Part shown: in pieces, positions 24,387-39,802 of the stretch
Numbering within the stretch: the stretch's first letter is position 1
How the letters are laid out: the number at the start of each line of letters is the position of its first letter
DNA from: a virus
DNA: 55,105 bases
Direction: 5' to 3' (one strand)
Virus genome (UHGV): UHGV-0308106
Notes under the pieces: generated by a model
Told to the model about the DNA's origin: nothing
Seen by the model: only the letters and a program-made list of their open reading frames with translations
The model's database searches: none
Position numbers and translations under genes: made by a program

Positions 24387-25619
24387 ATGAAATATTTTTT
24401 CAATACCCGGCTGGGGGAAACCCGCTATCAGCTGGCTGACGGCTCGCTGTTGTGTAAAGACGTGCCGATAGGTCGAACGGGTAAGCAGCTCTACGGCGCT
24501 GCCGATCTGCCAAACCTCAAACCCGACAAGCTCGGTGAGATAGTCGTAACGCGTTCTCCTGAGCAGGTATTCCATCCGGCCACGCTCGCCTCATTCGAAG
24601 GGATGAGCATCACGATCCTGCATCCTGAAGATGAAAACGGGAATGTGCGGCTGGTAAATCCCGAGAACTGGAAAGAGCTTGCGGTCGGGCATTTTCAGAA
24701 CGTTCGGCGCGGGACTGGTGACCAGTCTGATTTGATGCTGGCAGACCTTATCGTCAAAGACGAAAGCGCCATTCAGCTTATCGAAGATGGTCTGCGCGAA
24801 GTGTCGTGCGGCTATGACGCGGAGTACGAGCAGACCGAGCCAGGTAAAGCCGAGCAGGTCGATATTACCGGAAACCATGTGGCTCTTGTCCCTAAAGGCA
24901 GAGCCGGAAATCGTTGTGCAATTGGAGACAGAGACACAATGGCAAATCAAAAGAAAAGCTGGTGGACCCGCATGCGCACGGCCATCAAAACGGGTGACGC
25001 TGACACCATGAACGAACTGCTGGACTCTGCGCCAGCGGCGGTAACGGGTGACGAAGGGGATCTGCCGAGCGGCGTTAACCTCAACATTAACCTTTCACCG
25101 CAGCAACCATTGCCGGACAAAAAGCCGGAAATGGGCGGAGATCCAACCGGCGACGGCGAGGACGATATCAAAACCTTGCTCAAAGCCCTGCTGGCTAAGC
25201 TCGAAGGAACTGCGACGGGCGATAACGACAATAAGCCTGACGAAAAAGACAAAAAAGATCCGACCGGCGACGGCGAGGACGACGAAGAGGAAACCACGAT
25301 TACCGGTGACTCTGCCTATCGTGCCGAGGTTATCGTCCCGGGTATCGATCTGAGCCGTAAGGTGAAACCGACCGCGTTCAAACGTGATGTGCTGGCTGCC
25401 GCTGACAAAACACTGGTTCGCCAGGTTGTCGGTGATGCGGATATCCGCAAATTGCCCAAGCAATCGGTAGATATGGCGTTTAACGCCGTGTCAGAGATTG
25501 CCAAAGGGCGAAACACCCGCAGCACCACGGGCGATGCACAACGTCCAAATATGGGCATGACCAGCATCGCTTCCCTGAACAAACAAAACGCCGACTTCTG
25601 GTCTAACCGCAAAGGATAA
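24387..25619 (+). CDS. scaffold/protease-like head protein (DUF2213-like)
   Basis: 410-aa ORF; acidic repeats DPTGDGEDD x2; C-terminus TTGDA...NADFWSNRKG. Confidence 0.5.
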   Translation: MKYFFNTRLGETRYQLADGSLLCKDVPIGRTGKQLYGAADLPNLKPDKLGEIVVTRSPEQVFHPATLASFEGMSITILHPEDENGNVRLVNPENWKELAVGHFQNVRRGTGDQSDLMLADLIVKDESAIQLIEDGLREVSCGYDAEYEQTEPGKAEQVDITGNHVALVPKGRAGNRCAIGDRDTMANQKKSWWTRMRTAIKTGDADTMNELLDSAPAAVTGDEGDLPSGVNLNINLSPQQPLPDKKPEMGGDPTGDGEDDIKTLLKALLAKLEGTATGDNDNKPDEKDKKDPTGDGEDDEEETTITGDSAYRAEVIVPGIDLSRKVKPTAFKRDVLAAADKTLVRQVVGDADIRKLPKQSVDMAFNAVSEIAKGRNTRSTTGDAQRPNMGMTSIASLNKQNADFWSNRKG

Positions 25620-25833
25620 TCCAATGACTGCATATCTGTACCTTATGCAACTAATATCTATTAATCAGTGCGTTATCGTTCGGAATCATACTGCGTTACT
25701 GGCCTGAACCATAAAAATGACACTCCGAACATGTGCGGATTTATTCGCCGGATTTCGCTTTGATTCGGTACGTGAGGGACTAGAGCGAGAATCATGCGCC
25801 GTTTGCATTACATGGTAGCCAGAGAGGTGTTGA

Positions 25834-27063
25834 ATGATTGTTAGGCCACTAACTAACGTCGAAGTGAAAAGCGCGAAGGCACAGGGCAAGGATTTCAGTT
25901 TGCACGATGGTTTCGGTTTGTTGCTTTACATCACAAGCCGGGGCGGTAAGTCATGGCGTTTTCGGTATGTACACCCGGTAACGAAGAAGAGACAAACCTA
26001 TACCATTGGAAGATACCCGGAGTTTACTTTGTCCGAAGCGAGGGAGGAACGTTCGAAACTGCGCCGTATGGTAGCGCGGGGGATAGATCCGAACGAAGTC
26101 AAAAAAGATACCAGGAATGAACAGCGTAAAATGTACGCGCAGTCATTTCAGGCCGTTGCCGATGAATGGCTAAAAATCAAGATTAAAGAAGGTGCGAGAA
26201 GCAACACGCTTGAATCGCACAATGTGACGTTGAAGCATCTTTCCACGATTTTTAGGCATACCACAGTACATAAAATAAACGCAGCCGATACTATTCAGGC
26301 TTTTAAACCTTTCAGGGAAAGGCCATCAACGCTTACGAAAATGGTTATTACCATCAACGCCATAATGGATTATGCGGTAAATATTGGGGTTATTGAGCAC
26401 AACCCACTATCGAAAATTGGTAAAGCATTCCCGGCTGAAAAAAACGAACCAAGAGCGACTTTACAGAAAGAGCGGTTGCCAGAATTTTTAAGCGCATGGA
26501 ACGAGTTGAGCTTATGGGAGCCATCAAAGCTGGCATTATTATTTCAGATCATTACGATGGTCCGACCTTCGGAAGCTGGCGGCGCTCTCTGGAATGAGAT
26601 TGATTTTGATAATTCAATCTGGCAAATCCCTGCAAGCCGGATGAAAGGAAAGCGCCCCCACGTAGTCCCATTATCGAGCCAGGCTATAAACGTGCTTAAA
26701 GAGGCCGAAAAGTGGAAGCGCTGCGATTATGTTTTCCCCTCATGGCGAAAAGAAAATAAGCCGATCTCACGATGTGCGACTCAGGCCGGAATACACAAAA
26801 CGTCGTTTAAAGGAATGATTGTTCCTCATGGGTTCAGGGCGTTGGCATCTACAGTTTTAAATGACGAGGGGTTCAACCCTGATGTGATTGAGGCTGCACT
26901 CGCTCACAAAAGCGCCGATGCGATTCGAAATGTTTATAACCGTAGCGACTATCTGGAAAAACGCCGGGTTTTAATGCAATGGTGGGGGGACTTTATCGAG
27001 GCCGCAGAGCGTGGAGAGATACTGGAGACCAGCGGCGATAAGGGCTTAAGGCTGGTTGTGTAG
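25834..27063 (+). CDS. int: tyrosine integrase (P4-type) of nested element
   Basis: 409-aa ORF; N-terminal arm-binding-like GKSWRFRYV; catalytic domain (HGFRALAST, AALAHKSADAIRNVYNR). Confidence 0.85.
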   Translation: MIVRPLTNVEVKSAKAQGKDFSLHDGFGLLLYITSRGGKSWRFRYVHPVTKKRQTYTIGRYPEFTLSEAREERSKLRRMVARGIDPNEVKKDTRNEQRKMYAQSFQAVADEWLKIKIKEGARSNTLESHNVTLKHLSTIFRHTTVHKINAADTIQAFKPFRERPSTLTKMVITINAIMDYAVNIGVIEHNPLSKIGKAFPAEKNEPRATLQKERLPEFLSAWNELSLWEPSKLALLFQIITMVRPSEAGGALWNEIDFDNSIWQIPASRMKGKRPHVVPLSSQAINVLKEAEKWKRCDYVFPSWRKENKPISRCATQAGIHKTSFKGMIVPHGFRALASTVLNDEGFNPDVIEAALAHKSADAIRNVYNRSDYLEKRRVLMQWWGDFIEAAERGEILETSGDKGLRLVV

Positions 27064-27104
27064 GGCATATCCATTTTTGGATAATTATGATTTCAAACGG
27101 GAAT

Positions 27105-27129
27105 AGCTGGCTTTAAGCCAGCTTTTTTT
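27105..27129 (+). terminator. intrinsic terminator after integrase
   Basis: agctggc-tttaa-gccagct hairpin followed by tttttt. Confidence 0.55.
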
Positions 27130-27206
27130 ATGCCCAAAGCTAACCGGAATGCGTTTTTTTTTATTCAAATCATATATAATCATATCGAATATATACGGAG
27201 GTTTTT

Positions 27207-27419
27207 ATGTCTATAAGTGGCGGTGATATTCTGCTAAAAGGTGAAGTGAAAGCGCGTTTACGTTATCGCTCAGACTCGTCATTCTACGAGTTTCTAAAAG
27301 ACGAGAAAAACGGCTTTCCAATGCCTTTTAAAGTCGGTGGGCGTAACTGCTGGTATGAAGATGAAGTAGATGCCTGGATAAGTAAACAAAGCGAGAAGCG
27401 CGGGATCTGCACATCATGA
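27207..27419 (+). CDS. AlpA-family transcriptional regulator
   Basis: 70-aa ORF; GGAGG SD; short HTH protein (FPMPFKVGGRNCWYEDEVDAWI) adjacent to integrase. Confidence 0.65.
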   Translation: MSISGGDILLKGEVKARLRYRSDSSFYEFLKDEKNGFPMPFKVGGRNCWYEDEVDAWISKQSEKRGICTS

Positions 27420-27558
27420 ATGTTTGCAGATTTGGGAAAGAGGGCTTGCTAACGGCTATCCGGGCAAGCCCTTTTTATTGTCAGTGGTGGGGATCTGTAA
27501 CTTACGGCCACCAGCGCCGGTAATCACCTTCTGGCTGGTGGCTTCACTGGCATGGCTA

Positions 27559-27918
27559 TTACGCTGCCGCATCATCTGAATTGAATTCAATGTGAATTCG
27601 GTCATAAGGCAGCACGATTTTTTCGCCGTCTTTGTCCAGAACGCCGCCGTTAAGCAGTGACTGAACATCGTTATAAACACCGCGAAAATCACGGTTAACA
27701 ATGCGTGATAGTTCGCGGATTGATACGGCTTGCGCTCCCTCCATCGCTTTGATGATCTGCCAGCGGTTAGGGGCAAGCATAGTTTTAGCCAGTTGTTCTA
27801 CAGTGGGAAAAATCAGTTCGGAACCGATGAAATCCCCGTTCATTGCGCGGGAGGCGTCGGACATTGCCACCCGGAAAGCATCATCAACGGTCATTACTCT
27901 GACGGTCAGCACTCGCAT
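27559..27918 (-). CDS. winged-HTH protein (antitoxin/regulator-like)
   Basis: 119-aa ORF, GGAGG SD, 4-bp gap after upstream 93-aa gene; HTH-like AVSIRELSRIVNRDFRGVYNDV. Confidence 0.5.
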   Translation of the reverse strand: MRVLTVRVMTVDDAFRVAMSDASRAMNGDFIGSELIFPTVEQLAKTMLAPNRWQIIKAMEGAQAVSIRELSRIVNRDFRGVYNDVQSLLNGGVLDKDGEKIVLPYDRIHIEFNSDDAAA

Positions 27919-27922
27919 GGTA

Positions 27923-28204
27923 TTACCTCCTCAACAGGTTTATGTCAGCCTGAAAGCTGGCGATCAGGTTCTCAATGGTGGTGAATGTCACCGGATATTC
28001 CCGATCATGGATGTGTTTGTGGTCGCCTTTGCCACGTTCGTTGTCGTAACGCATGACGCACTCGCCATCTACGATGTAGGCCAGACTGTACTTGTATTGG
28101 TGCTGGCTACCTAAAATTGCCGGGTCTACTTCCAGAATGCGGATCGAGGCGAAAGCGTTATCAGCTATCTGGATACGGCGGTTCATCAACTCAACAGCGG
28201 GCAT
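27923..28204 (-). CDS. small protein (toxin-like partner, family not recognised)
   Basis: 93-aa ORF, AAGGAG SD, operator palindromes immediately upstream. Confidence 0.45.
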   Translation of the reverse strand: MPAVELMNRRIQIADNAFASIRILEVDPAILGSQHQYKYSLAYIVDGECVMRYDNERGKGDHKHIHDREYPVTFTTIENLIASFQADINLLRR

Positions 28205-28220
28205 TGGCTTATCTCCTTGT

Positions 28221-28270
28221 TGATGTAAATAATAACATCACAAACGAATGATGTAAATGATTACATCATT
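28221..28270. promoter_or_regulatory. inverted-repeat operators upstream of two-gene cassette
   Basis: tgatgt-aaataata-acatca (28221-28240) and aatgatgtaa-atga-ttacatcatt (28247-28270). Confidence 0.45.
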
Positions 28271-28412
28271 GCGGGTAAGTTACCGATGGCATGAACGGTT
28301 CGCTGCTGGTGGCTCTCGATCTCCTGAAAGCTCAGGATATTGCCGGGCATGATTTTAATCGGCGGACTTTTCGGCCGATTGAATACGGGCAGTTCGCTCC
28401 CTGTGTATCGGC

Positions 28413-28552
28413 TTCGTTTCTGGATGATTCGCGTTTCGTTTCTGGTGAATTCGCATTCGCAATTTGTCCGCGAAGCCTTATCAGGCCTGATTTGAGCGGT
28501 GCTCTCTCTTTGCGAATTCGCAGTTCCATTTCGCACTTTGATTCGCAGTTTT
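28413..28552. repeat. cluster of palindromic GAATTCGC/GATTCGC motifs
   Basis: Tandem 20-mers ttcgtttctggatgattcgc (28413-28432) and ttcgtttctggtgaattcgc (28435-28454); further gcgaattcgca and gattcgca copies to 28552; overlapping ORFs look non-coding. Confidence 0.4.
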
Positions 28553-28713
28553 CAAATGTTCCCATTCCGGGGACACGGACGATTAGACAGGTGTTACAAA
28601 CGTTGGTGGTGAAATATCTTCTTGCGCTGGCGGGCACGGTGTGGTTATGATTATTTCGCACCTCACAAAACGGGTGCCGGGCGTGAGAACCCGGATAAGG
28701 TCAAAGGCGACAA

Positions 28714-28737
28714 CAGACGCCTATCGCGTCTTTTTTT
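28714..28737 (+). terminator. intrinsic terminator in leader upstream of icd-like gene
   Basis: agacgc-ctatc-gcgtct stem followed by tttttttt. Confidence 0.4.
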
Positions 28738-28931
28738 TGTCGCAATGTCAGTACCCCCATATGTAGCGGCGCAGATCCGCGCACAGAATCAATGGTGGCT
28801 CTGGCAGGGCAGCTTTCGGGCTGGCCGGTTCCCTTTGACGCCGGTATTCTCACCCCTGTCAGTGTCACCACCCTTTAGAGCGTGAGAACTCAGGTGGTGG
28901 CTCCTTAAATTAGTCAAAGGAGATCATCATC

Positions 28932-29129
28932 ATGATGACTATCCCTACCCTCGCTCAAACAAAATTCACCTGGCGCTTTCTCGCGCTGAATCGCCACGAT
29001 AAAAAAGCCAAACCTTGCCGTCTGTCCGTTGAGGCTGCGACCGAACGCGAAGCCCGCCGCATCCTTGCGCCGCACTTTATTTTGTCTCTGGCCGCACGTC
29101 TGCCAGTGCCGGAGGTGCGTCATGTTTAA
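28932..29129 (+). CDS. Icd-like small protein (P4 family)
   Basis: 65-aa; KFTWRFLALNRHD...RLSVEAATEREARRILAPHFILSLAARLP resembles Icd/Ash proteins as recalled. Confidence 0.45.
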   Translation: MMTIPTLAQTKFTWRFLALNRHDKKAKPCRLSVEAATEREARRILAPHFILSLAARLPVPEVRHV

Positions 29130-30000
29130 CCTCCAGACACTGACAGCTAAAGCCCGTGAGCTGCGCGGCAACGTCGTTAAAGCGGCGAGCACAAAGGGAA
29201 GTCGCACCATGACTCCTGTCTATGACCGTGACGAGCAGCGCAAGCTACGCGAGCGCATCCAGCAGACACAGCCCGATTGGGTGTTGCTCTGGTGGGATAT
29301 TGCGACCGTAACCGGCTGGCGTACCAGCGACGTTTGCAACCTGCGCTATTCCTGCGTCAATTGGGAAACGGGGCAGGCGACAATTATCGTTGCCAAGCAG
29401 ACCAAAGCCGCCGAAGCGCGGGCAACCCGCAAAGGTATTGAAATTGTGCGCCAGCAGCGCAAGGACGCCGCGCGGCTCGCCGCTGACCATATCGCCTACA
29501 TGAAGTGGGATAGTATCGGTTGTGACGAACTGGCCGCCGATATGAACGACGAGGAACAGGCGATTGTGTTCGGGCTGGTGGCAAAGGCTGACGTCAAGCA
29601 CGACACCAAACAGTTACCGCCCGGCATTATCAAGCGGCTGCGTGACCGTCAGGATCGGAATCTGGTGGAGGACGACCTGGTATTTTCACGCTCTCAAATC
29701 GAAAGTAACCGTTGTCAACGTCTGGAAGGTAGCGTTACTCGCCAAACCATCTGGCGCAAACTTCATGGCGTCATGGCGTGGTTTACCCGTTTCATTAACG
29801 CTAAATTGCGCCTGAGCGCGTACTCAAGCCGAAAAATAGCAGCCTTTAATCTTATGTCCGCAGGTGGCGAACAGGGATTATTGGTGGCTTCTGAAATGCT
29901 GGGGCATAGCAACCCGGCGATAACTCGCACTTACCTTCAATTAGGCAGCAAAGCCGCCGCTATCCAGTCCCGTTTAGCAATGGAGGTGTGCCATGCGTAA
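29122..30000 (+). CDS. tyrosine recombinase-like protein (catalytic domain only)
   Basis: 292-aa from ATG 29122 (GGAGG SD); WDIATVTGWRTSDVCNL and C-terminal LGHSNPAITRTYLQ; no N-terminal core-binding domain. Confidence 0.55.
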   Translation: MFNLQTLTAKARELRGNVVKAASTKGSRTMTPVYDRDEQRKLRERIQQTQPDWVLLWWDIATVTGWRTSDVCNLRYSCVNWETGQATIIVAKQTKAAEARATRKGIEIVRQQRKDAARLAADHIAYMKWDSIGCDELAADMNDEEQAIVFGLVAKADVKHDTKQLPPGIIKRLRDRQDRNLVEDDLVFSRSQIESNRCQRLEGSVTRQTIWRKLHGVMAWFTRFINAKLRLSAYSSRKIAAFNLMSAGGEQGLLVASEMLGHSNPAITRTYLQLGSKAAAIQSRLAMEVCHA

Positions 30001-30172
30001 TCTCTTTCATATCACTGGCTACGCCGTCAATAAACGCGGCCTGACAGTCGGTTTTAGCTATCTCATCGACGCCGAGGACGCCATGCAGGCAAAAGTTAAT
30101 GCCATTGCTGAGGCGAAAGACGATGAACTCACCCACGTATCTATTGCCCGTATTCTGGAGGTGGCAGCATGA
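29993..30172 (+). CDS. hypothetical small protein
   Basis: 59-aa ORF not in track; GGAGG SD; coupled to neighbours. Confidence 0.35.
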   Translation: MRNLFHITGYAVNKRGLTVGFSYLIDAEDAMQAKVNAIAEAKDDELTHVSIARILEVAA

Positions 30173-30381
30173 GCAAAGTATCCCTGGCCGATTCAACCTG
30201 CCGTATCCAACAGGCGCAGGAAGTCCTGTCTCTCTGGCTTGAGGCGACGAATAAAAACGATAGCGGCACGGCTAAATTAATCGGCGCAATCATTTCCCTT
30301 CTGGATGGTATCCCCGAATTGATGGATTCAGTAGAGGATGAATTGGCTGGCATGGACTTAAAAGCGATGGATAAAGCATGA
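30169..30381 (+). CDS. hypothetical protein
   Basis: 70-aa ORF, ATGA coupling on both sides. Confidence 0.4.
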   Translation: MSKVSLADSTCRIQQAQEVLSLWLEATNKNDSGTAKLIGAIISLLDGIPELMDSVEDELAGMDLKAMDKA

Positions 30382-31004
30382 GCAACGTAGAGAAATTCAC
30401 ACCGGGAAATGCCGACTTATTACACGCCGAAGCCACACCGCACGGCGTAAACATCATGACCCGCAATGATGCCGGGATGTATGAGCATGTAGCCATTATC
30501 ACCTATGAGAGCGCTGTAAGCCGTCTGGATGCGGGAGAGTACGACGATACGCCAGATATCGGCTACGCCATTCATTTTGCCGTTGCTGATGGCGGGGCGC
30601 GTGGCTGGTTCGACTTTACCGCGCAGCATGAAGTAACCATGTGGCGCTGGCTGATTGCTGCGACGTTCGTTTCTGAGATGAAGCGCGAAAACGGCACAAC
30701 CTCCGTCACGGAGGCTGACGGCACAACATCGCAGGTGGCGATTTACTCCAATGGTAATGCGGGCATGGTGATTTACCCGTTTGCTGAACGGCTGGCGATG
30801 GCGAACAACATCGAGGGCGCAATGATTGAGCGATACGGCGTCGAACAGGGTACGGAAAAAGCCATTGTGTTTTATCAGGCCATGCTGGATACGGAGCGCG
30901 GCGAGCTTACCCCGTTCGGACGTGAAACGCTGGCAGAGCTACACGATCACTTCATTGCTGATCTGGATGAAAACGGCTGGCCTGAAATGCCAGCGGCGCA
31001 CTGA
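30378..31004 (+). CDS. hypothetical protein
   Basis: 208-aa ORF upstream of primase in same operon. Confidence 0.45.
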   Translation: MSNVEKFTPGNADLLHAEATPHGVNIMTRNDAGMYEHVAIITYESAVSRLDAGEYDDTPDIGYAIHFAVADGGARGWFDFTAQHEVTMWRWLIAATFVSEMKRENGTTSVTEADGTTSQVAIYSNGNAGMVIYPFAERLAMANNIEGAMIERYGVEQGTEKAIVFYQAMLDTERGELTPFGRETLAELHDHFIADLDENGWPEMPAAH

Positions 31005-31016
31005 GGGAGCGACACA

Positions 31017-33797
31017 ATGCGTAATATCGACCTTATCCGCGAAGTGACCAGCGCCGCAGCAGGGCGCTGGCCTTATGTGCTGGCTGGGTTGTCTATCGAC
31101 GTGCCTGATTCATCGCGCCGCCATTCTCCATGCCCTGCATGTGGTGGAAAAGACCGTTTCAGATTCGACGACAACGGGCGCGGTAGCTTTATCTGCAACC
31201 AGTGTGGCGCTGGTGACGGGCTGGATTTAATCAAGCGGGTTAACAACTGCGACACTACGGAGGCGGCACAGCTTGCCGCTGACGTGCTGGGTATTGATTA
31301 CCGGGCAGCGCAATCCGACCCGGTGGCAGCGAGCCATATAAGGGAGCAACTGGAAGCTGACCGCCAGCAGCGTGAGCAGGAGCGCCAGAAACAGGCAGCA
31401 GGGGACGCAGAGCAGCGAAGGGCTACGTTTGCCCGTCTGTATGCCGGAATGCGCCAGAGTGCCACACAGGGCGAATCTGATTACCTGCAATCAAAAGGGC
31501 TGACCGGGTTTAACTATCCGGTTATGCCTGATGGTTCGTTATTGCTGGAGCTGGTGGACGAATCCGGCGCAGTGGCAGCAGCGCAAACCATTACACCGCA
31601 GGGAGAGAAGCGACTCCTGACAGGTTCAGCAAAGCGCGGGGCATATCACGCCGTAAACGCGCCAGAATCGCCGCAGAGCGTTTTAATTGCCGAGGGGCTG
31701 GCGACGGCCCTTTCAGTTCACCTGATGCGCCCGGACGCGCTGGCAGTGGCAGCAATTGACGCGGGCAACCTGCTACCCGTTGCCGAAGTGATGCGCCGGA
31801 AGTACCCACAGGCACAAATCATCATTGCCGCAGATAACGACCAGATGGGCGAAAGTGACGGAATTAAAGGAGTGAAAGTTAACACTGGCAAGGAGGCCGC
31901 AGAGAAAGCCGCGAAAGCCGTTTCTGGCTGGGTTTCCATGCCACCAGTGGACTATAAAGCGGACTGGAACGACTACCACCAGCAATACGGCCTCGAAGCG
32001 GCCACAGCAGCATTTAACGACTCAATGTATCAACCGGAGGGTAAGAAAGTGGGTGCGACACTGACAGCTATCGACGGCGGCAAGAAAAAACTTGGTATCG
32101 ACGACGATCTGAAACCGCGAGTAGAGAGCCGTGCGGATGGCATTCACTGGATCACCCCGAAAGTGGACAAAGACACAGGAGAAATTATCAATACCGAGGC
32201 GTGGCTATGCTCTCCGCTGGAGATTGCTGGTGCGGGGAGTGATAACGCCAGACAGCGCTTTCTGATCCTGCGTTGGGACGTCCCCGGCAACCGGGGGCAA
32301 GTTACCCGTGCGCTTCCATGGGAGGACATTGGCGACCGTGAGGGATGGCGCACGCTGAAAAACGGCGGTGTCAGTGTGACAACCAAACCATCGTTGCGGG
32401 CAATTCTGGCCGACTGGCTGCAGCGAACTGGTAGCGGCAAGGAATGGCAGATCAGCCACACCACAGGCTGGCACAACGGGGCGTACATCATGCCGGATGG
32501 TGATGTTATTGGTGAGCCAGAGATACCGCTGTTATTCAGTGGTCGGAGTGCGGCGGCTGGTGGCTATACCGTCAGTGGAACGCCGGAAAGCTGGCGTGAT
32601 TCGGTGGCGCGTCTTGCGCTGGGAAACCCGTCAATGATGCTGGGCGTTGCTGCTGCGCTTTCTGCGCCGCTGATCGGGCTTGTTGGCGCTGACGGGTTCG
32701 GCGTGCATCTTTTCGAGCAGTCCAGCGCAGGGAAGACAACCACCGCCAACATTGCCAGCAGTTTATACGGTGAACCGGATGCCTTGCGCCTTACCTGGTA
32801 CGGTACAGCGCTGGGTATCGCCAACGAAGCGGAAGCGCATAACGACAGCCTGTTACCGCTGGATGAAGTGGGGCAGGGCAGTAGCGCCAAAGACGTTGCT
32901 ACGTCTGCTTACACGCTGTTTAACGGTGCCGGAAAGCTACAGGGGGCCAAGGAGGGCGGCAACCGTGAGTTAAAGCGCTGGCGCACCGTGGCGATCAGTA
33001 CCGGGGAAATGGACATTGAGACGTTTCTTTCTGCTGGTGGGCTGAAAGTTAAGGCCGGGCAACTGGTGCGATTGCTTAATTTACCGATGGAGAAATCAGT
33101 AACGCACCATGAGTACCAGAACGGGAAGCAACACGCCGACGCACTCAAAGAGGCTTACCAGACGAACCACGGAGCCGCAGGCCGTGAATGGATTAAATGG
33201 CTTGCAGGCCACCAGCAGGAGGCAAAACAAGCTGTCAGGGCGGCGCAAGAGCGCTGGCGCAGTCTTATCCCCGCTGATTATGGCGAACAGGTTCATCGTG
33301 TCGGTGAGCGGTTCGCCATTCTGGAGGCGGCGCTGGTGCTGGGGATGCCTGTCACTGGTTGGGGGGAGCAGGAAAGTCGGGACGCTATCCAGCATGGCTT
33401 TAATGCTTGGGTAAAAGAGTTTGGCACGGGGAACCGTGAGCATAAGCAGATCATCGAGCAGGCAGAGGCGTTTCTTAATGCCTACGGCATGAGCCGTTTC
33501 GCGCCGTTCCCGTATAGCCCGGCTGACATGCCGATCCGGGATTTAGCCGGATACCGTCAGAAAGGTGAGCATGACGAAAGCCCCGTAGTGTTCTACACCT
33601 TTCCGGCTGCGTTCGAAAAGGAGATAGCGCAGGGCTTTAATGCGAAACAGTTTGCCCGTGTGCTGGCCGGGGCTGGGGTACTGAAACCGCCAGCCAGCGG
33701 AAGGGGATATCAGCGTAAATCCCCGCGAATTGATGGACGCCAGATAAACGTTTATGTGCTCCAGCTACGACCCGACGAGATAGAGGGCGAAGAATAA
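31017..33797 (+). CDS. primase-helicase (P4 alpha-like)
   Basis: 926-aa; zinc ribbon CPACGG...CNQCG; TOPRIM-like AEGLATALSVH and IIAADNDQ; P-loop-like SSAGKTT. Confidence 0.9.
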   Translation: MRNIDLIREVTSAAAGRWPYVLAGLSIDVPDSSRRHSPCPACGGKDRFRFDDNGRGSFICNQCGAGDGLDLIKRVNNCDTTEAAQLAADVLGIDYRAAQSDPVAASHIREQLEADRQQREQERQKQAAGDAEQRRATFARLYAGMRQSATQGESDYLQSKGLTGFNYPVMPDGSLLLELVDESGAVAAAQTITPQGEKRLLTGSAKRGAYHAVNAPESPQSVLIAEGLATALSVHLMRPDALAVAAIDAGNLLPVAEVMRRKYPQAQIIIAADNDQMGESDGIKGVKVNTGKEAAEKAAKAVSGWVSMPPVDYKADWNDYHQQYGLEAATAAFNDSMYQPEGKKVGATLTAIDGGKKKLGIDDDLKPRVESRADGIHWITPKVDKDTGEIINTEAWLCSPLEIAGAGSDNARQRFLILRWDVPGNRGQVTRALPWEDIGDREGWRTLKNGGVSVTTKPSLRAILADWLQRTGSGKEWQISHTTGWHNGAYIMPDGDVIGEPEIPLLFSGRSAAAGGYTVSGTPESWRDSVARLALGNPSMMLGVAAALSAPLIGLVGADGFGVHLFEQSSAGKTTTANIASSLYGEPDALRLTWYGTALGIANEAEAHNDSLLPLDEVGQGSSAKDVATSAYTLFNGAGKLQGAKEGGNRELKRWRTVAISTGEMDIETFLSAGGLKVKAGQLVRLLNLPMEKSVTHHEYQNGKQHADALKEAYQTNHGAAGREWIKWLAGHQQEAKQAVRAAQERWRSLIPADYGEQVHRVGERFAILEAALVLGMPVTGWGEQESRDAIQHGFNAWVKEFGTGNREHKQIIEQAEAFLNAYGMSRFAPFPYSPADMPIRDLAGYRQKGEHDESPVVFYTFPAAFEKEIAQGFNAKQFARVLAGAGVLKPPASGRGYQRKSPRIDGRQINVYVLQLRPDEIEGEE

Positions 33798-33811
33798 AAC
33801 ACACATACGAG

Positions 33812-34104
33812 ATGTTTTTTTGTTGGTTCAGTTGGTTCAGTAACTATTTAATTAAGATAAGTATATGTATTTAATATATTTCTATACCCATAAGTGAACC
33901 AACACTGAACCAACAAATACCCATTTTGAACCAACAAATGCCGCTATTGAACCAACGCCCTTTTCTGGCTGGCCTGTAAATCTTTCCCACTGAACCAACA
34001 CGAAAATAGCGTTTGTTGGTTCAAAACAAGGCTTTGTTGGTTCACTCCTCAAGAAATAATCCTTACAAAACAACAATCTTTACAAATTGAACCAACTGAA
34101 CCAA
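33812..34104. repeat. iteron array / candidate origin of replication
   Basis: 12 copies of GAACCAAC in both orientations (e.g. 33812, 33821, 33886, 33897, 33918, 33939, 33982, 34005, 34026, 34079, 34088, 34097) flanking an AT-rich tract 33830-33880. Confidence 0.65.
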
Positions 34105-34397
34105 CTGAACCAACATGTTTTTGTTTATCTATAGAGTTTTTTCGGAGAGTAATTACGAATTTGGAGGGGCATCGCCTAAGCGACAGTATGCGGAAACGGC
34201 AACTTTGCGGAGCGGAAAAGAAAAAGCCCGCGCTGGAGAGGCGAGGGCTTTTGTTAACCATGTTTATGCAATCACACAATGGTGGATCACCGTCATAGTA
34301 CCACGTCGATTTATCATTTCAATGTACGCAATGATGTTTACTAATATTGCAATTTATGCAATGATCAGAATTTAAACAACGCAAAAGGTTATGAACA

Positions 34398-34961
34398 ATG
34401 AAACAGATAACCAATGTTAATCTGGAAAGTGATAACGCTGGTGGTACAGTCGAGGTGACTTACTCCGATGATACGTTCGAAAGGCTGACCTGTTCGCTGC
34501 CTGTGGCTCTCGTCATTGCGAACCTTGCAACGACGCTTAAGCAGGAACGTGCAACACGCATTGCAACCGGCGACCGCCTGCGCCGGATGTATACCCGCGA
34601 TAGTGACATGATTACCCGCAGCGGCAGCGGCGCTTCTACGACCTCCACCGCGCCAACGTCAATGGACGCTGAATTTATGCGCCTGGTACGCGCTGTAGCA
34701 CCAAAGTATGACAACGCCCTTCCTGATACCGATCCTCGCCTTGTTGCGCTTGATGTGCTGCGTTACGCACCCGCTGAGGCATTCAGTGCGGTACACCCGA
34801 CCCCGCTATCAGAGATTCAGCTTGATCAGGCTATCGACGTTCTGGAACAGGTTGGCGACTACATGCGAGTTAACAACGTTTCACCGAAGATTCTCACCAC
34901 AGGCGACGCCATTCGCAGCATTAACACCGACAACGCCAGTTTCTGGCATCGCACGAAGTAA
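34398..34961 (+). CDS. hypothetical protein with scaffold-like C-terminal motif
   Basis: 187-aa; C-terminus TTGDAIRSINTDNASFWHRTK resembles helper 24387-25619 C-terminus. Confidence 0.5.
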   Translation: MKQITNVNLESDNAGGTVEVTYSDDTFERLTCSLPVALVIANLATTLKQERATRIATGDRLRRMYTRDSDMITRSGSGASTTSTAPTSMDAEFMRLVRAVAPKYDNALPDTDPRLVALDVLRYAPAEAFSAVHPTPLSEIQLDQAIDVLEQVGDYMRVNNVSPKILTTGDAIRSINTDNASFWHRTK

Positions 34962-34967
34962 GGAGCA

Positions 34968-35162
34968 ATGAGCATGGCTATTTATGACCCGAAATTAGCA
35001 GCAGGAAACCCGCAAAGCGCCGGGCGTAAACTCTTTGGCCGTGAACAGGCCGAGCAATTGCGGATGCGTAACAACTTCAACAACGAATGCCGCAATCTGG
35101 AAAAAGTCAACGAAGCGAATGCAAAGTTCTGGAGTGAACAGGATGAAAAAGCCAAACGTTAA
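34968..35162 (+). CDS. hypothetical small protein
   Basis: 64-aa; contains NAKFW near C-terminus. Confidence 0.4.
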   Translation: MSMAIYDPKLAAGNPQSAGRKLFGREQAEQLRMRNNFNNECRNLEKVNEANAKFWSEQDEKAKR

Positions 35163-35310
35163 GCCGGTATTACTCTCTGGCGACCAGTTCGCCGCAATCT
35201 GCAAGATCCAGGAGCGCGAACGCCAGCGCTCCGATATTGGCGTAGCGCCGTCTGTCCATCAAATTGCCCGTGGGCTGGTGGCGAAAGCGCTGGCATCAAT
35301 TCAGGAATAA
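35143..35310 (+). CDS. hypothetical small protein
   Basis: 55-aa from ATG 35143 with GGAG SD. Confidence 0.3.
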   Translation: MKKPNVKPVLLSGDQFAAICKIQERERQRSDIGVAPSVHQIARGLVAKALASIQE

Positions 35311-35315
35311 CGACT

Positions 35316-36383
35316 ATGTCATATAACTGGATGCGCCATTTCGAGCTACAGCTCATCGATGAGAATGGCAAAGGAATTAGCCTTAGTGATTTCAAAGTTA
35401 CCTTTGATATAGAGCGTAACGATAACAAATGGCCAGCTGTTGCGACGGTCAAGATCTACAACCTTTCACCAACTACTCAGAACCGTATTATGCAACGTGA
35501 GTTTGCCAAAATTGTGTTGATAGCGGGGTATGATGGTCGTGCGCAGGATGTAAGGGCAAGTGATGTGGGGATTGCACGTGAAATATCAGCAAGCGAAGTG
35601 GGCCAGGCTAACGGCGCAAACTACGGAGTCATTTTCAGCGGTGATATCCGCTTCACTGTGACCGGAAAAGATAACCCTGTCGATTCATGGGTACAGGTGC
35701 AGGCTTGTGACTCTGTGGAGGCGTTTACCAGCGCATTTATCAACACCACTATCAGCAAAGGCTACACCACAGAAGATATTTATGTTGAGCTTATGAAAAG
35801 GCTGGAACCTTACGGCATTTCTCGCGGTATTGTTCCTGAATTCCCGGCAACGGTATTTCCTCGCGGTCGAGCCCTCTTTGGCTATGTCCATAACTATCTC
35901 GATGAAGTGGCCGCGCAGTGCAAAGCCACTTGGCAATTCAACTATGGAAAAGTCGATATTGTTCCCAGAGACAAGGCCACTCATGAAGCTGTGGTTCTCA
36001 ACGCTAATACCGGGCTTATCGGTATGCCTCAGCAGACCATCGGTGCGGGTGTGAATGTCAAATGCCTGATTAACTCACGGATTCACCTGAACGGGCTTAT
36101 CCAACTGGATCAGGCTTCGGTATATCGTAGCGCCTTATCTGCGGATCAAATTGCCCAAGCTGGTGGGCCAATTTCGGTGGAAAGCCAAAACGGAAACCTT
36201 GTCACTACTGGATTAACGCAGAGTCCGGCGAGCATTGCTACCGATGGTATCTATAAGGTTCGGTATATCAGTTACACGGGCGACACGCGCGGTCAAGCGT
36301 GGTATATGGATCTGGCGTGTGAGGCTCGCGGGAATTCTGATTTATTTTCAAGTTCATTTATGAATAAGCAGAGTGAAGAATGA
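35316..36383 (+). CDS. baseplate hub-like protein (paralog of 47472-48536)
   Basis: 355-aa; about 70 percent identical by eye to helper hub-like protein (MSYNWMRHFELQLID vs MSLNWMRHFELQLLD). Confidence 0.5.
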   Translation: MSYNWMRHFELQLIDENGKGISLSDFKVTFDIERNDNKWPAVATVKIYNLSPTTQNRIMQREFAKIVLIAGYDGRAQDVRASDVGIAREISASEVGQANGANYGVIFSGDIRFTVTGKDNPVDSWVQVQACDSVEAFTSAFINTTISKGYTTEDIYVELMKRLEPYGISRGIVPEFPATVFPRGRALFGYVHNYLDEVAAQCKATWQFNYGKVDIVPRDKATHEAVVLNANTGLIGMPQQTIGAGVNVKCLINSRIHLNGLIQLDQASVYRSALSADQIAQAGGPISVESQNGNLVTTGLTQSPASIATDGIYKVRYISYTGDTRGQAWYMDLACEARGNSDLFSSSFMNKQSEE

Positions 36384-36724
36384 AGAAGATTATTTTACTG
36401 ATTGGTTTATTGGGCGCATCTGGAAGTCATGCTGCGCAGGTTATTACCATGCAGTGCGGAAACTTTCGCTTTGAGATGATAGAAAACTCGATGGCGAGAA
36501 TTAATGGTGAGTATGTAACATCTCAGAAAATTACAGAGTTCGGACAGAACGGGGCAAAAGTAGAAATGACGCTTATGCCTGCCAGCGATGGGAATCTGTA
36601 TGGGTTTGAATACATCCATCCTGACGGTAGCAAAAAGCGCTGGCTGAATGTTGAGCTTATCCGCACCAATATGAATCAGGCGCGGATCATTGGCTCGTTT
36701 GATTGTAAGCGCGTGAAGGGGTAA
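36380..36724 (+). CDS. secreted small protein (paralog of 48549-48893)
   Basis: 114-aa; signal peptide MKKIILLIGLLGASGSHA; two Cys; shared C-terminal DCRKVK. Confidence 0.5.
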   Translation: MKKIILLIGLLGASGSHAAQVITMQCGNFRFEMIENSMARINGEYVTSQKITEFGQNGAKVEMTLMPASDGNLYGFEYIHPDGSKKRWLNVELIRTNMNQARIIGSFDCKRVKG

Positions 36725-36732
36725 GGGGAATC

Positions 36733-37395
36733 ATGCCATTCATTCGACCCGCAAATGAGCAGGATGTAACACAGCTTGTTCAGGACAATGCTAAAGCATC
36801 TGTAACCAATGCGTTACCTGGCATTATTCGTTCGTTCGATCCCGAAACTGTCACCTGCGATGTTGATATAGCCATTACGGCAAGAATGACGAAGGCTGGC
36901 ACAATGGGTGAAGATTTCCAGTATGAGTCCGTCCGCTATCCGATTCTTAACGATTTGCCTGTGGTTTTTCCGCGCGGGGGCGGAGTTACGCTTACTTTCC
37001 CGGTTAAAGATGGTGATGAATGCCTCATCGTATTCTCTTCGCGTTCGATTGATTTCTGGTGGCAGAACGGCGGTGTGCAGGAGCGAGCTGATGGGCGTAT
37101 TTTAGATCTGTCTGATGCGTTCGTTATTCCTGGCCCCCAATCACAGGTAAAGAAGATATCCAATATCAGTACCAACGCTGCGCAGCTGCGTACAGATGAT
37201 GGAGCGGCATTTGTAGAGGTGTCCGCTGGTGGAGCCATTACTATTACCAGCTCTCAAATCACCCTTAACGGGCCCGTGCAGGTAAACGGAACGATCACTT
37301 CCACTGGCGACCAAACGGCCAACGGTATCAGCCAGATTAACCATACCCACGGCGGCGTACAATCAGGCGGCAGCAACACAGGAAAACCACAATGA
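36733..37395 (+). CDS. baseplate spike protein gpV-like (paralog of 49430-50170)
   Basis: 220-aa; PGIIRSFDPETVTC, FPRGGG, C-terminal HTHGGVQSGG; about 65 percent identical to helper gpV. Confidence 0.7.
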   Translation: MPFIRPANEQDVTQLVQDNAKASVTNALPGIIRSFDPETVTCDVDIAITARMTKAGTMGEDFQYESVRYPILNDLPVVFPRGGGVTLTFPVKDGDECLIVFSSRSIDFWWQNGGVQERADGRILDLSDAFVIPGPQSQVKKISNISTNAAQLRTDDGAAFVEVSAGGAITITSSQITLNGPVQVNGTITSTGDQTANGISQINHTHGGVQSGGSNTGKPQ

Positions 37396-37571
37396 GCAAT
37401 ATTGAAAAACTGAAACCAGAAGAAAGCGGATCCAGCCAGAATGGTAAGGTTCGTACCTGGCTGGATGATATCAACGGGCAGCCGGAACCAGATGGTATTG
37501 GCAGCTTCGGTGAGAGTGCGATCTGCGAAGAATCACGCACAGCGGAAACCATGCGAAATAACGTAGGGTGA
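37392..37571 (+). CDS. hypothetical small protein
   Basis: 59-aa ORF, ATGA overlap with gpV-like stop. Confidence 0.3.
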   Translation: MSNIEKLKPEESGSSQNGKVRTWLDDINGQPEPDGIGSFGESAICEESRTAETMRNNVG

Positions 37572-37599
37572 CGGTCAGATGACGTGATCTGTAACTTTA

Positions 37600-37647
37600 A
37601 GTAGCGGTGCAGGGGCAGAACTCAGCACGCTACTTTTATTTTCTTTG
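37600..37647 (+). terminator. intrinsic terminator upstream of orphan small-terminase paralog
   Basis: agtagcggtgc...gcacgctact stem with one bulge, followed by tttattttctttg. Confidence 0.5.
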
Positions 37648-37661
37648 TCAAAAGGTGAACA

Positions 37662-38135
37662 ATGGCGGCATTACCAACAATGGCTAAGGTTATGATTATT
37701 CAATCATTAGCTTGCTACGAACCCCCTTCCAGAATCGTTGAGCTTGTAAAACAAGATTTTGGCATCGTCGTTACCCGGCAGCAGATATCGGCCTACAACC
37801 CTGAAAATACAATGGCAAAAAATCTTAGCCAAAAATGGGTAGAACTCTTTAATCACACTCGCGCCCGCTTCCAGAGTGAAATATCCGAGATCCCTATCGC
37901 TAACAAAGCGTACCGGCTGCGTATGCTCGATCGCATGGCTAACCGTGCAGAGGCAATCAAGAATTACGCATTAACAGCGCAGCTTATTGAACAGGCCGCG
38001 AAAGAGTGCGGGGACGCTTACACCAACAAATTAAAGGTTGAAACAACGGGTAAAGATGGTGGTCCGATCAGAACGGAAACAACGAACTTAACCGCCGAAG
38101 AAGCCGGGGAGGCATACCGCAAATTTATGGGATAA
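37662..38135 (+). CDS. small terminase paralog (orphan)
   Basis: 157-aa; same length as 19876-20349 product, C-terminal half nearly identical; no large terminase or portal follows. Confidence 0.5.
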   Translation: MAALPTMAKVMIIQSLACYEPPSRIVELVKQDFGIVVTRQQISAYNPENTMAKNLSQKWVELFNHTRARFQSEISEIPIANKAYRLRMLDRMANRAEAIKNYALTAQLIEQAAKECGDAYTNKLKVETTGKDGGPIRTETTNLTAEEAGEAYRKFMG

Positions 38136-38366
38136 CCACCAGCGCCGTGACACGTCACACGCAAAAATAGCACCGCCCATTAATGGGCTGGTGGCACAGC
38201 TTGCATATTGAAATTCCCTGTAAATCTTACAGATCTGGTATTGAGTAACTTACCCCATTCAGCGCCATACATCACAGAGCAGCCTATGGACTACACACAA
38301 AATCAGGCTGCAAATAAATCCTTATATTTCAGTTGATTAAATAATAGCCTTGCATTCCTGTACCGG

Positions 38367-38849
38367 ATGCCTGTTGGCATTGCCGGGGCTATCTCTCGCC
38401 CGCAGGACTTAACCGTCGAACCGGTGATCCTTAAATCCGCTAACGCCTTCGCTGCCTATGGTCTGGCTGGCAAATATGACGCTGACGGCTTTTTCGTGCC
38501 GCTGGCGGACGGTGACACCGCCGACAAGGTGAAGGGGATCTACGTTCGTCCGTATCCGACCACATCGCAGCCAGACATGGTTCGCCAGGTGGGGACGGAT
38601 AAGAACTTCCCGGGTGACGCCATGAAGCGTGGCTACATGACCGTTAATCTCGGTTCTGATTTTGATGCCAGCACCATCAAAAAAGGCGACCCGGTATACG
38701 TTGTCGTCTCCACTGATGAATCCATAAAAGTGCCGCTGGGCGGCTTCATGTCCACGTCCGTCAGTGGCAAAAACGTGGCGCTGACCAACGCCGAATTCAC
38801 AGGGGCCGGTGACGCTAACGGCAATGTAGAAATCTCCTGGAAGATTTAA
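38367..38849 (+). CDS. head protein (decoration or scaffold-like), hypothetical
   Basis: 160-aa ORF directly upstream of major capsid gene. Confidence 0.4.
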   Translation: MPVGIAGAISRPQDLTVEPVILKSANAFAAYGLAGKYDADGFFVPLADGDTADKVKGIYVRPYPTTSQPDMVRQVGTDKNFPGDAMKRGYMTVNLGSDFDASTIKKGDPVYVVVSTDESIKVPLGGFMSTSVSGKNVALTNAEFTGAGDANGNVEISWKI

Positions 38850-38860
38850 GGAACAGACAA

Positions 38861-39802
38861 ATGATTACTTTTGATCAGGCAACCGTAGATAGCTCCGGTG
38901 CCTTTCTCATCGGGGAGCTGGAGCGACTCGACCAGACGCTGAACCTGCCTCTGGTGGGGTACACCTGGACCCGAGATATTCAACTGCGTGAAGACGTGTC
39001 TATCGCAGATGACATTTCCAGCTGGACGAATACCAGCTTCGCCGCTGCGGGTACTGGTGCAAATCCGAATGGTAAAAACTGGGTAGGCAAAGACTCCACC
39101 GCTATTGCTGGCGTGAACGTGGATATCAGCAAAGACGGCAATCCACTGAACCTCTGGGGTATGGAACTGGGCTGGACCGTTGTAGAGCTGGCAGCTGCTC
39201 AGCAGGTAGGCCGCCCGATTGATACCCAGAAGTACGACGGGATGCAGCTCAAATGGCAGATGGACAACGACGAGCAGGTTTACATCGGTGATGACGCACT
39301 CGGCCTGAAAGGTCTGGCAAACCTCGTCGGTGTGACGCTGAACAACGCGCCGAAGACCTGGGCGAACTCAACCAACGACGAGATCCTCGATAGCGTGAAC
39401 AGCATTCTGTCTAATGCCTGGGCAGCATCCGGTTATTCCATCGTGCCTTCTGATCTGCGCATTCCGCCAGAGCAGTATTCACTGCTGGCGAGCCGTAAGG
39501 TTTCCGAAGCGGGTAACCAGTCACTGCTGACCTATCTGGCTGTGAACACTATCGCTTTCCACCAGAACGGCGTTCCGCTTGAAATCAAAGCGGTCAAATG
39601 GCTGAAAGGGCGTGGGGTTGGCGGTAAAGACCGTATGATCGCCTACACCAACGACAAGAAATACGTGCGCTATCCGCTGGTGCCGTTGCAGAGCGTTCCT
39701 GTCCAGTATCGCGGTCTGTATCAGATTGCGACCTACTACGGCAAGCTCGGTGCGGTTGAGCCAGTGTACAAAGAAACCCTGTCCTACGTGGACGGTATCT
39801 GA
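38861..39802 (+). CDS. major capsid protein
   Basis: 313-aa ORF in head module; size, position and composition typical of coat proteins. Confidence 0.55.
   Translation: MITFDQATVDSSGAFLIGELERLDQTLNLPLVGYTWTRDIQLREDVSIADDISSWTNTSFAAAGTGANPNGKNWVGKDSTAIAGVNVDISKDGNPLNLWGMELGWTVVELAAAQQVGRPIDTQKYDGMQLKWQMDNDEQVYIGDDALGLKGLANLVGVTLNNAPKTWANSTNDEILDSVNSILSNAWAASGYSIVPSDLRIPPEQYSLLASRKVSEAGNQSLLTYLAVNTIAFHQNGVPLEIKAVKWLKGRGVGGKDRMIAYTNDKKYVRYPLVPLQSVPVQYRGLYQIATYYGKLGAVEPVYKETLSYVDGI

Follow-up and report, generated by a model that had tools for sequence, protein, structure and literature searches.

The window analysed here, a 55,105-nucleotide stretch of viral genome UHGV-0308106, carries on its minus strand a small two-gene cassette that, judged from sequence comparison, is probably a functional TumE-family type II toxin-antitoxin (TA) operon with the regulatory logic proposed below. 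The first gene, tumE (27923-28204, minus strand), encodes a 93-aa short-branch TumE/DUF6516 toxin homologue identified by its PF20126 match, and the second, putative tumA (27559-27918, minus strand), encodes a 119-aa winged-HTH protein of the HVO_A0114 family identified by its PF25212 match. Membership of the TumE family predicts that the 93-aa protein is the toxin, while anatomy and conservation point to the 119-aa protein as the antitoxin. The RNase and ClpXP details of this reading deserve less confidence than the operon reading itself. On this element, the module most likely serves addiction or retention, and it may in addition provide its carrier satellite with abortive infection.

As a phage-satellite accessory module built from known families, the cassette is unexceptional: publications and annotation databases already cover its families as well as the configuration of its carrier. 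It has little discovery value, because the family's naming and validation date from 2023 and an identical toxin already bears the TumE family name in RefSeq. Its value is descriptive: it represents a large toxin-first branch of the TumE superfamily outside the validated pairs, and the window copy resides in E. coli-type DNA on a natural carrier of the helper-embedded PICI type. In addition, the comparative data supply hypotheses, based on a conserved paired operator, an ArsR-like partner with a near-universal C-terminal -AA, and the DNERGKGDHKH motif.

Both proteins belong to described families

An earlier note on this DNA had recognised neither protein family and had suggested HMM searches with both. 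Those searches place each protein above its Pfam cut-off. The 93-aa protein matches PF20126, "Toxin TumE" (formerly DUF6516), with 58.3 bits (cut-off 23.4, E = 7.5e-16), the alignment spanning model positions 1-80 of 81, and the 119-aa protein matches PF25212, HVO_A0114, with 67.3 bits (cut-off 27.6, E = 1e-18). NCBI records also name close copies of both proteins accordingly. RefSeq product names for the identical TumE are "toxin-antitoxin system TumE family protein" or "DUF6516 family protein", TumE homologues are labelled TumE/DUF6516 by NCBI and UniRef, and partner homologues appear in RefSeq and UniRef as "HVO_A0114 family putative DNA-binding protein" or "transcriptional regulator". The two families are thus recognised, since Pfam models and RefSeq/UniRef names cover both proteins, and the claim of unrecognised families falls. 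NCBIfam has no TumE model and returned only a sub-threshold chance match for the partner. Both families are large, with 1876 clusters at 50% identity matching the TumE profile and 3184 clusters at 90% identity matching the partner profile.

The toxin alignment contains a near-invariant block, D54-N-E-R-G-K-G-D-H-K-H64 (DNERGKGDHKH), accompanied by H35, K38 and Y39. The window TumE has the invariant motif YDNERGKGDHKH together with these three residues. The conserved polar and charged nature of this block suggests a catalytic site or a substrate-binding site of TumE. There are no non-synonymous changes between the window TumE and the TumE genes of two complete E. coli genomes, and comparison with the Salmonella and Pantoea copies gives dN/dS values of 0.03-0.05 for tumE and tumA alike; by this measure, purifying selection on the two genes is strong. 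Truncated TumE-like fragments of 53-79 aa occur in some genomes.

In the AF2 model of TumE (pLDDT 93.9), six beta-strands come in succession and a single helix closes the C-terminus. The family fold has been described as an antiparallel seven-strand sheet with two helices and without a confident PDB relative (PMC10584680), and the six strands and single helix predicted here, set against those seven strands and two helices, would correspond to a trimmed form of that fold. Comparison of the window TumE with the PDB likewise gave no sequence relative, no solved-structure match and no known toxin fold.

The partner resembles ArsR-type repressors

The earlier note had described the 119-aa protein as a winged-HTH protein, and both the PF25212 match and an ArsR/SmtB-like predicted fold bear this out. 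Its AF2 model (pLDDT 78.6) comprises an N-terminal beta-alpha-beta unit, an ArsR-like winged HTH and a flexible C-terminal tail, of which residues 116-119 have a pLDDT below 50. By sequence, the partner gives only chance-level matches in the PDB. With Foldseek, the best matches are ArsR/CadC/SmtB-type repressors at a probability of 1.00, with E-values of only 2e-3 and weaker, and the predicted core superposes on PH1932, CadC, SmtB, CzrA and YgaV-type repressors. The partner shares a winged-helix core, along with its PF25212 match, with the HVO_A0114/ArsR-SmtB repressors, but carries in addition a beta-alpha-beta unit at its N-terminus and a conserved -AA at its C-terminus. The resemblance does not imply a metal-sensing role. 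A literature search on the HVO_A0114 family found no published functional study.

The C-terminus of the partner is Ala in 68 of 74 homologues and -AA in 63 of 74, with a variable preceding residue; one partner subclade lacks the -AA tail. In the window copy, the tail codons specify Ala-Ala-Ala (27562-27570, minus strand). A free -AA at the end of a flexible C-terminus is reminiscent of the ssrA-type signal recognised by ClpXP. By this analogy the tail is a candidate ssrA-like protease degron of the ClpXP type, which would fit a labile antitoxin.

Paired candidate operators overlap the predicted cassette promoter

Two inverted repeats had been noticed just upstream of the genes, and they are present as 20-bp palindromes. 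Operator O1 (28249-28268), the promoter-distal palindrome, has the sequence TGATGTAAATGATTACATCA, read on the minus strand as TGATGTAATCATTTACATCA. Operator O2 (28221-28240), the promoter-proximal near-palindrome, has the sequence TGATGTAAATAATAACATCA, with the minus-strand reading TGATGTTATTATTTACATCA. The start-to-start distance between the two is 28 bp. The pattern TGATGTWA-N4-TWACATCA has only two sites in the 55-kb window, O1 and O2 themselves, and gave no match in 100 shuffles. A sigma-70-like promoter (28229-28257, minus strand) is recognisable from its consensus match of 10/12 plus TG, the transcription start being inferred. Its -35 hexamer TTTACA (28257-28252) lies inside the distal palindrome and, after a 17-nt spacer, its TG-extended -10 hexamer TATTAT (28234-28229) lies inside the proximal one.

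This arrangement is not confined to the window copy. Of 79 loci from other species, 52 carry the motif TG[AT]TGT-N8-ACA[AT]CA, with at most one mismatch, within 125 nt upstream of TumE, against a background of 6 sites in the remaining 755 kb of flanking DNA. Two sites at a spacing of 28-29 bp occur in 29 loci. In silico, the cassette thus displays one trait of type II TA modules, namely a DNA-binding partner with palindromic operators over its own promoter. The autoregulated TA architecture proposed in the earlier note is supported, as the first gene belongs to a family with experimentally shown toxins and the operators overlap the promoter.

These data bear on two readings that would dispense with a toxin. 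It is extremely improbable that the ORFs and repeats have no function, whether as products of chance or as the remains of a decayed module. The truncated fragments of 53-79 aa mentioned above show that such modules do decay elsewhere, but here both ORFs are full length and above the Pfam cut-offs, dN/dS is 0.03-0.05 and all invariant residues are present; the operators, absent from shuffles, are conserved across phyla. The second reading has the winged-HTH protein govern the satellite life cycle, with its DNA binding tuned by a 93-aa co-regulator or sensor that is not toxic; on this view, toxicity was lost from the short TumE branch or was never there. This branch is indeed shorter than the validated toxins, has the reversed gene order and falls outside the tested subcluster 1a, and the cassette sits in a regulator-rich zone between alpA and the immunity RNAs isrK and C4. 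However, there is no other operator target in the window, because the motif is present only before the cassette. The operators, TumE and the partner also recur together in alpha-, beta- and gammaproteobacteria on satellite-free plasmids and chromosomes, while closely related satellites such as that of EC2001 lack the cassette. Moreover, the near-invariant DNERGKGDHKH block with H35, K38 and Y39 suggests a catalytic or substrate site rather than a simple adaptor. We therefore regard a purely regulatory role as very unlikely.

Cassette layout suggests coupled synthesis of toxin and antitoxin

The leftward two-gene operon described in the earlier note is present as read there: ORFs of 93 aa and 119 aa are separated by 4 nt between the tumE stop and the putative tumA ATG (TAA-tacc-ATG). 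Both genes have the strong Shine-Dalgarno sequences that had been claimed, read from the sequence as AAGGAG for tumE (28213-28218, minus strand), 8 nt before its ATG, and GAGGAGG for tumA (27926-27932, minus strand), 7 nt before its ATG. The latter is formed by the final L-R-R codons of tumE. Translation of tumE and tumA may be coupled, and the antitoxin would be made in step with the toxin because its Shine-Dalgarno sequence lies in the toxin's last codons.

In the TumE-TumA operon as we propose it, the antitoxin would neutralise TumE through binding and, alone or together with TumE, would repress the operon by occupying O1 and O2 over the -35 and -10 hexamers. The conserved, disordered C-terminal -AA tail would render the antitoxin protease-labile, possibly via ClpXP-type recognition. 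Once synthesis stops, the antitoxin would be turned over and TumE freed.

Toxin-first pairing is conserved across distant loci

A scan for the motif [YF]DNERGKG, with one genome per species, gave at least 590 loci, of which 80 were fetched. The fetched TumE loci come from alpha-, beta- and gammaproteobacteria and from a few other phyla. Wherever the DNA beyond TumE could be read (74 loci), the gene directly 3' of TumE encodes a partner homologue of 112-129 aa, with its start placed -23 to +4 nt relative to the TumE stop. Conversely, reverse look-ups from distant partner proteins found TumE immediately upstream in 3 of 3 cases. The toxin-first gene order at these pairing loci is opposite to that of clusters 1, 2, 4 and 6 in PMC10584680. 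Long-form TumE paralogues were sought in all fetched loci and none was found.

The cassette is present in 2 of 5426 complete E. coli genomes, at 96-97% nucleotide identity, and the TumE family occurs on 74 plasmids. Most copies have ordinary chromosomal or plasmid surroundings without satellite genes, and the neighbours of distant copies include IS66, CcdAB, TIR-TPR and AIPR genes. Such a patchy, mobile spread as a self-contained cassette is a further trait of type II TA modules. Homologues of the int, alpA and primase genes of the window element are absent from the 80 distant loci; hence, outside the Enterobacterales, the cassette is not bound to this type of satellite.

Comparison with characterised toxin-antitoxin systems

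The TumE-TumA superfamily goes back to Durairaj et al. (Nature 2023, PMC10584680), who defined and tested it and found DUF6516 proteins in bicistronic pairs. Six gammaproteobacterial TumE toxins arrested E. coli growth and were neutralised by their cognate neighbours (PMC10584680). In metabolic labelling, carried out for the Allochromatium tepidum toxin only, 35S-methionine incorporation was lowered; a putative RNase activity of TumE was proposed (PMC10584680). In clusters 1, 2, 4 and 6 of that study, the toxin gene lies downstream of its partner (PMC10584680). The window pair resembles these systems in being bicistronic, with a small DNA-binding partner, and in a predicted toxin fold for which no PDB relative was found. 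However, the validated pairs all belong to subcluster 1a and consist of toxins of approximately 112-133 aa and unrelated antitoxins of approximately 76-109 aa encoded upstream, some of them RelB-like (protein lengths estimated from synthetic DNA lengths). By contrast, the window pair has a 93-aa toxin homologue first and a 119-aa HVO_A0114 winged-HTH protein second, and forms a separate branch.

Toxin-first order is in itself familiar from HigB-HigA, MqsR-MqsA and HicA-HicB, in which the gene for an HTH antitoxin follows that for the toxin. These systems also have palindromic operators over the promoter, and their toxins act on translation. Between the window TumE and HigB/MqsR/HicA-type toxins, no sequence or fold relationship was detectable, and the DNA-binding domain of the partner is an ArsR-like winged helix and not an Xre-type HTH as in these reverse-order systems.

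The cassette occupies a variable segment of a helper-embedded satellite

The carrier is a satellite of approximately 12.7 kb, extending from about 25649 to 38350. It contains an integrase (25834-27063), an AlpA-like gene (27207-27419; 20.5 bits versus a cut-off of 21, assigned to the AlpA family in RefSeq), isrK RNA (28658-28736) and C4 antisense RNA (28788-28875), both above the Rfam gathering score, and a Toprim/DUF927 primase (31017-33797). Other satellite genes are an Icd-like ORF, a second recombinase-like gene, and baseplate-hub, spike and DUF2280 genes. Comparison with an empty E. coli prophage site shows that the satellite is inserted after codons 6-7 of a Gp24-like "structural cement protein" gene, which lies between a DUF2213 gene and the major capsid gene. 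This comparison set the junctions, as an exact-repeat search for att sites found none. The insertion junction occurs in only 4 of 300 E. coli genomes with a matching prophage region.

Within this element, a segment of 799 bp (27494-28292) is present or absent as a unit, as defined by blastn breakpoints and a junction alignment against E. coli EC2001. Its content amounts exactly to operators, promoter and both genes; the window element is otherwise collinear with that of EC2001, and the segment junction has 2 nt of microhomology. A 9-bp terminal inverted repeat near the segment ends, GTAACTTAC / GTAAGTTAC, raised the idea of a transposable mini-cassette, which we dropped because the repeat is missing in the Salmonella, Pantoea and Buttiauxella copies. 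In Salmonella and Pantoea satellites with other primases, the pair has the corresponding position, in some cases with a Bro-N gene as its neighbour.

The earlier note had placed the cassette in a typical accessory slot of P4-like elements. The accessory slot near int-alpA stands, and is sharpened by the precise 799-bp segment, but the P4 assignment does not: the P4 hotspot documented for accessory and defence genes is the psu-int interval (Rousset et al. 2022, PMC9122126), and Psu, Sid and Delta had no match among ORFs of at least 100 aa in 25.8-38.2 kb. The element thus lacks the full P4-like core set (int, psu, delta, sid, alpA, ash, alpha) because psu, sid and delta are absent. A likeness to P4 gop-beta-cII nevertheless exists, since both are small TA-like accessory cassettes next to an integrase on a satellite with a P4-type immunity RNA. 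Relative to the P4 hotspot, however, the window cassette is located between alpA and the C4 RNA, and its carrier is without psu, sid and delta.

[quoted passage not shown] Correspondingly, the window satellite has int and AlpA, a variable zone with isrK and C4, a primase zone and captured late genes; this int-AlpA-primase satellite is co-oriented within a prophage late gene and its zone order agrees. In this scheme the cassette belongs to the dynamic zone, behind AlpA. Searches of the main text of PMC10111431 found mention neither of a TA module nor of this cement-protein target gene.

Possible roles of the module on its satellite

The setting on a phage satellite raises the possibility that the selected role of the same module is anti-phage defence, which would be compatible with the mechanism proposed above. 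Here, a phage that shuts off host transcription or triggers proteolysis would cause loss of the antitoxin, TumE would block translation, and the aborted infection would protect the satellite, the helper prophage and sibling cells. The cassette does lie in the variable accessory zone of a satellite, defence systems, among them the TA-like gop-beta-cII, are known to be harboured by satellites (PMC9122126), distant copies are found beside AIPR (Abi-like), TIR-TPR and CcdAB genes, and TumE and its partner both fall into PHROG families of phage and prophage proteins. However, PADLOC-DB v2 gave no match for TumE and only weak, winged-HTH-level matches to CARF/CasR/Csa3 regulators for the partner (E = 1.5e-3 or weaker); database support for a defence role is missing because PADLOC has no TumE model. 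Our literature search likewise found no paper linking TumE/DUF6516 to defence, most copies reside in ordinary chromosomal or plasmid settings without satellite genes, and the documented P4 defence hotspot, psu-int, is a different locus. Taken together, we consider defence as the selected role possible but rather unlikely.

A related and speculative proposal, which we hold to be doubtful, is that the toxin-first TumE and HVO_A0114 pair serves on helper-embedded satellites as a switch that senses infection or induction. Under attack by a phage, or on induction of the helper, a ClpXP-labile winged-HTH repressor would be lost and a translation inhibitor released, which would then abort competing phages or time the expression of helper late genes for the benefit of the satellite. 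If true, this would be the first biological role for the TumE superfamily.

A hairpin flanks the 3' end of the cassette

At 27442-27476, the sequence reads as a GC-rich hairpin, GGGCTTGC...GCAAGCCC, accompanied by a plus-strand T-run. The terminator scanner passed over it because its loop is 14 nt long. The hairpin is likely the alpA terminator, and it may also provide a stop for the leftward tumEA transcript.

Insertion of the satellite in the prophage head operon

The satellite, an int-alpA-primase element that carries the tumE-tumA cassette, extends over about 25649-38350 of the window, with attL at 25624-25648 and attR at 38336-38350. When compared with E. coli GPEC60-12-649, where the site is empty (ATGACTGCATATCTGTACC/GGATGCC), the window shows the insertion point after codons 6-7 of a Gp24-like cement-protein gene within the prophage head operon, with a DUF2213 gene (24387-25619) on one flank of the cement-protein gene and the major capsid gene (38861-39802) on the other. 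This junction is present in only 4 of 300 E. coli genomes that have this prophage region. The placement of the satellite in the head operon matches the published configuration of helper-embedded PICIs (HE-PICIs), for which 14 integration sites are described (PMC10111431).

The cement-protein ORF that remains after insertion (38367-38849) has the internal Met8 as its sole possible start, with no obvious Shine-Dalgarno (SD) sequence, and the end of the satellite provides a similar stretch, yet without a start codon (TTGCATTCCTGTACC). The helper may therefore need excision of the satellite, or read-through, to express this head gene, a dependence that has been proposed for HE-PICIs.

Immunity, replication and late regions of the satellite

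About 390 nt from the tumE promoter, which is divergent to them, are two tandem RNAs: isrK (28658-28736, + strand; Rfam, 61 bits) and C4 antisense RNA (28788-28875, + strand; Rfam, 79 bits). Together they form an RNA immunity region like that of P4, ahead of an Icd-like ORF at 28932-29129. The replication operon of the satellite contains a second, shorter tyrosine-recombinase-like gene (29029-30000, + strand), which matches the Phage_integrase domain in part (41.5 bits) and which the relatives from E. coli and Pantoea have kept.

The late zone, taken as 35316-38135, holds a baseplate-hub-like gene (35316-36383), a spike gene with an N-terminal domain and an Apex motif (36733-37395), and a DUF2280 small-terminase-like gene (37662-38135). 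Late-gene sets vary among the sister elements, that of E. coli ET791 comprising an M41-type peptidase and DUF2280 and that of E. coli EC2001 baseplate and spike genes, which fits capture of the late genes from helper phages.

The variable zone around the cassette

Just within the ends of the 799-bp segment that holds the cassette is a 9-bp inverted repeat, GTAACTTAC (27497-27505) and GTAAGTTAC (28275-28283). The copies of the cassette in Salmonella, Pantoea and Buttiauxella are not flanked by a conserved form of this repeat, so it is probably coincidental. At the site occupied by the cassette, EC2001 has an unbroken 129-aa ORF, which in the window (27424-27493 plus 28293-28650, + strand) is split into ORFs of 51 and 119 aa; RefSeq calls the 51-aa ORF a "MYXO-CTERM sorting domain" in E. 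coli ECONIH5. The ORF across this site is unlikely to be a genuine gene, as it reads across the hairpin of the alpA terminator and matches no known family. The same zone contains a second indel (28596/28632 in the window, compared with L001 9195-10433 and L083 from 13195 onward, two loci from other genomes), where the ECONIH5 and ET791 elements carry an additional segment of at least 1.2 kb; this includes a hypothetical gene of 356 aa with no counterpart in the window.

tumE leaders across relatives

In most alpha- and betaproteobacterial copies (among loci L008-L064), the operator palindrome nearer tumE reaches into the TumE start codon by one base, its first (for example, L013 5954-6001 and L021 2872-2920), and a CATAAT-like -10 element is placed 7 nt upstream; judged from this spacing, leaderless tumE mRNAs are implied for these copies. 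The enterobacterial copies, including that of the window, have a 17-nt tumE leader bearing an SD sequence.
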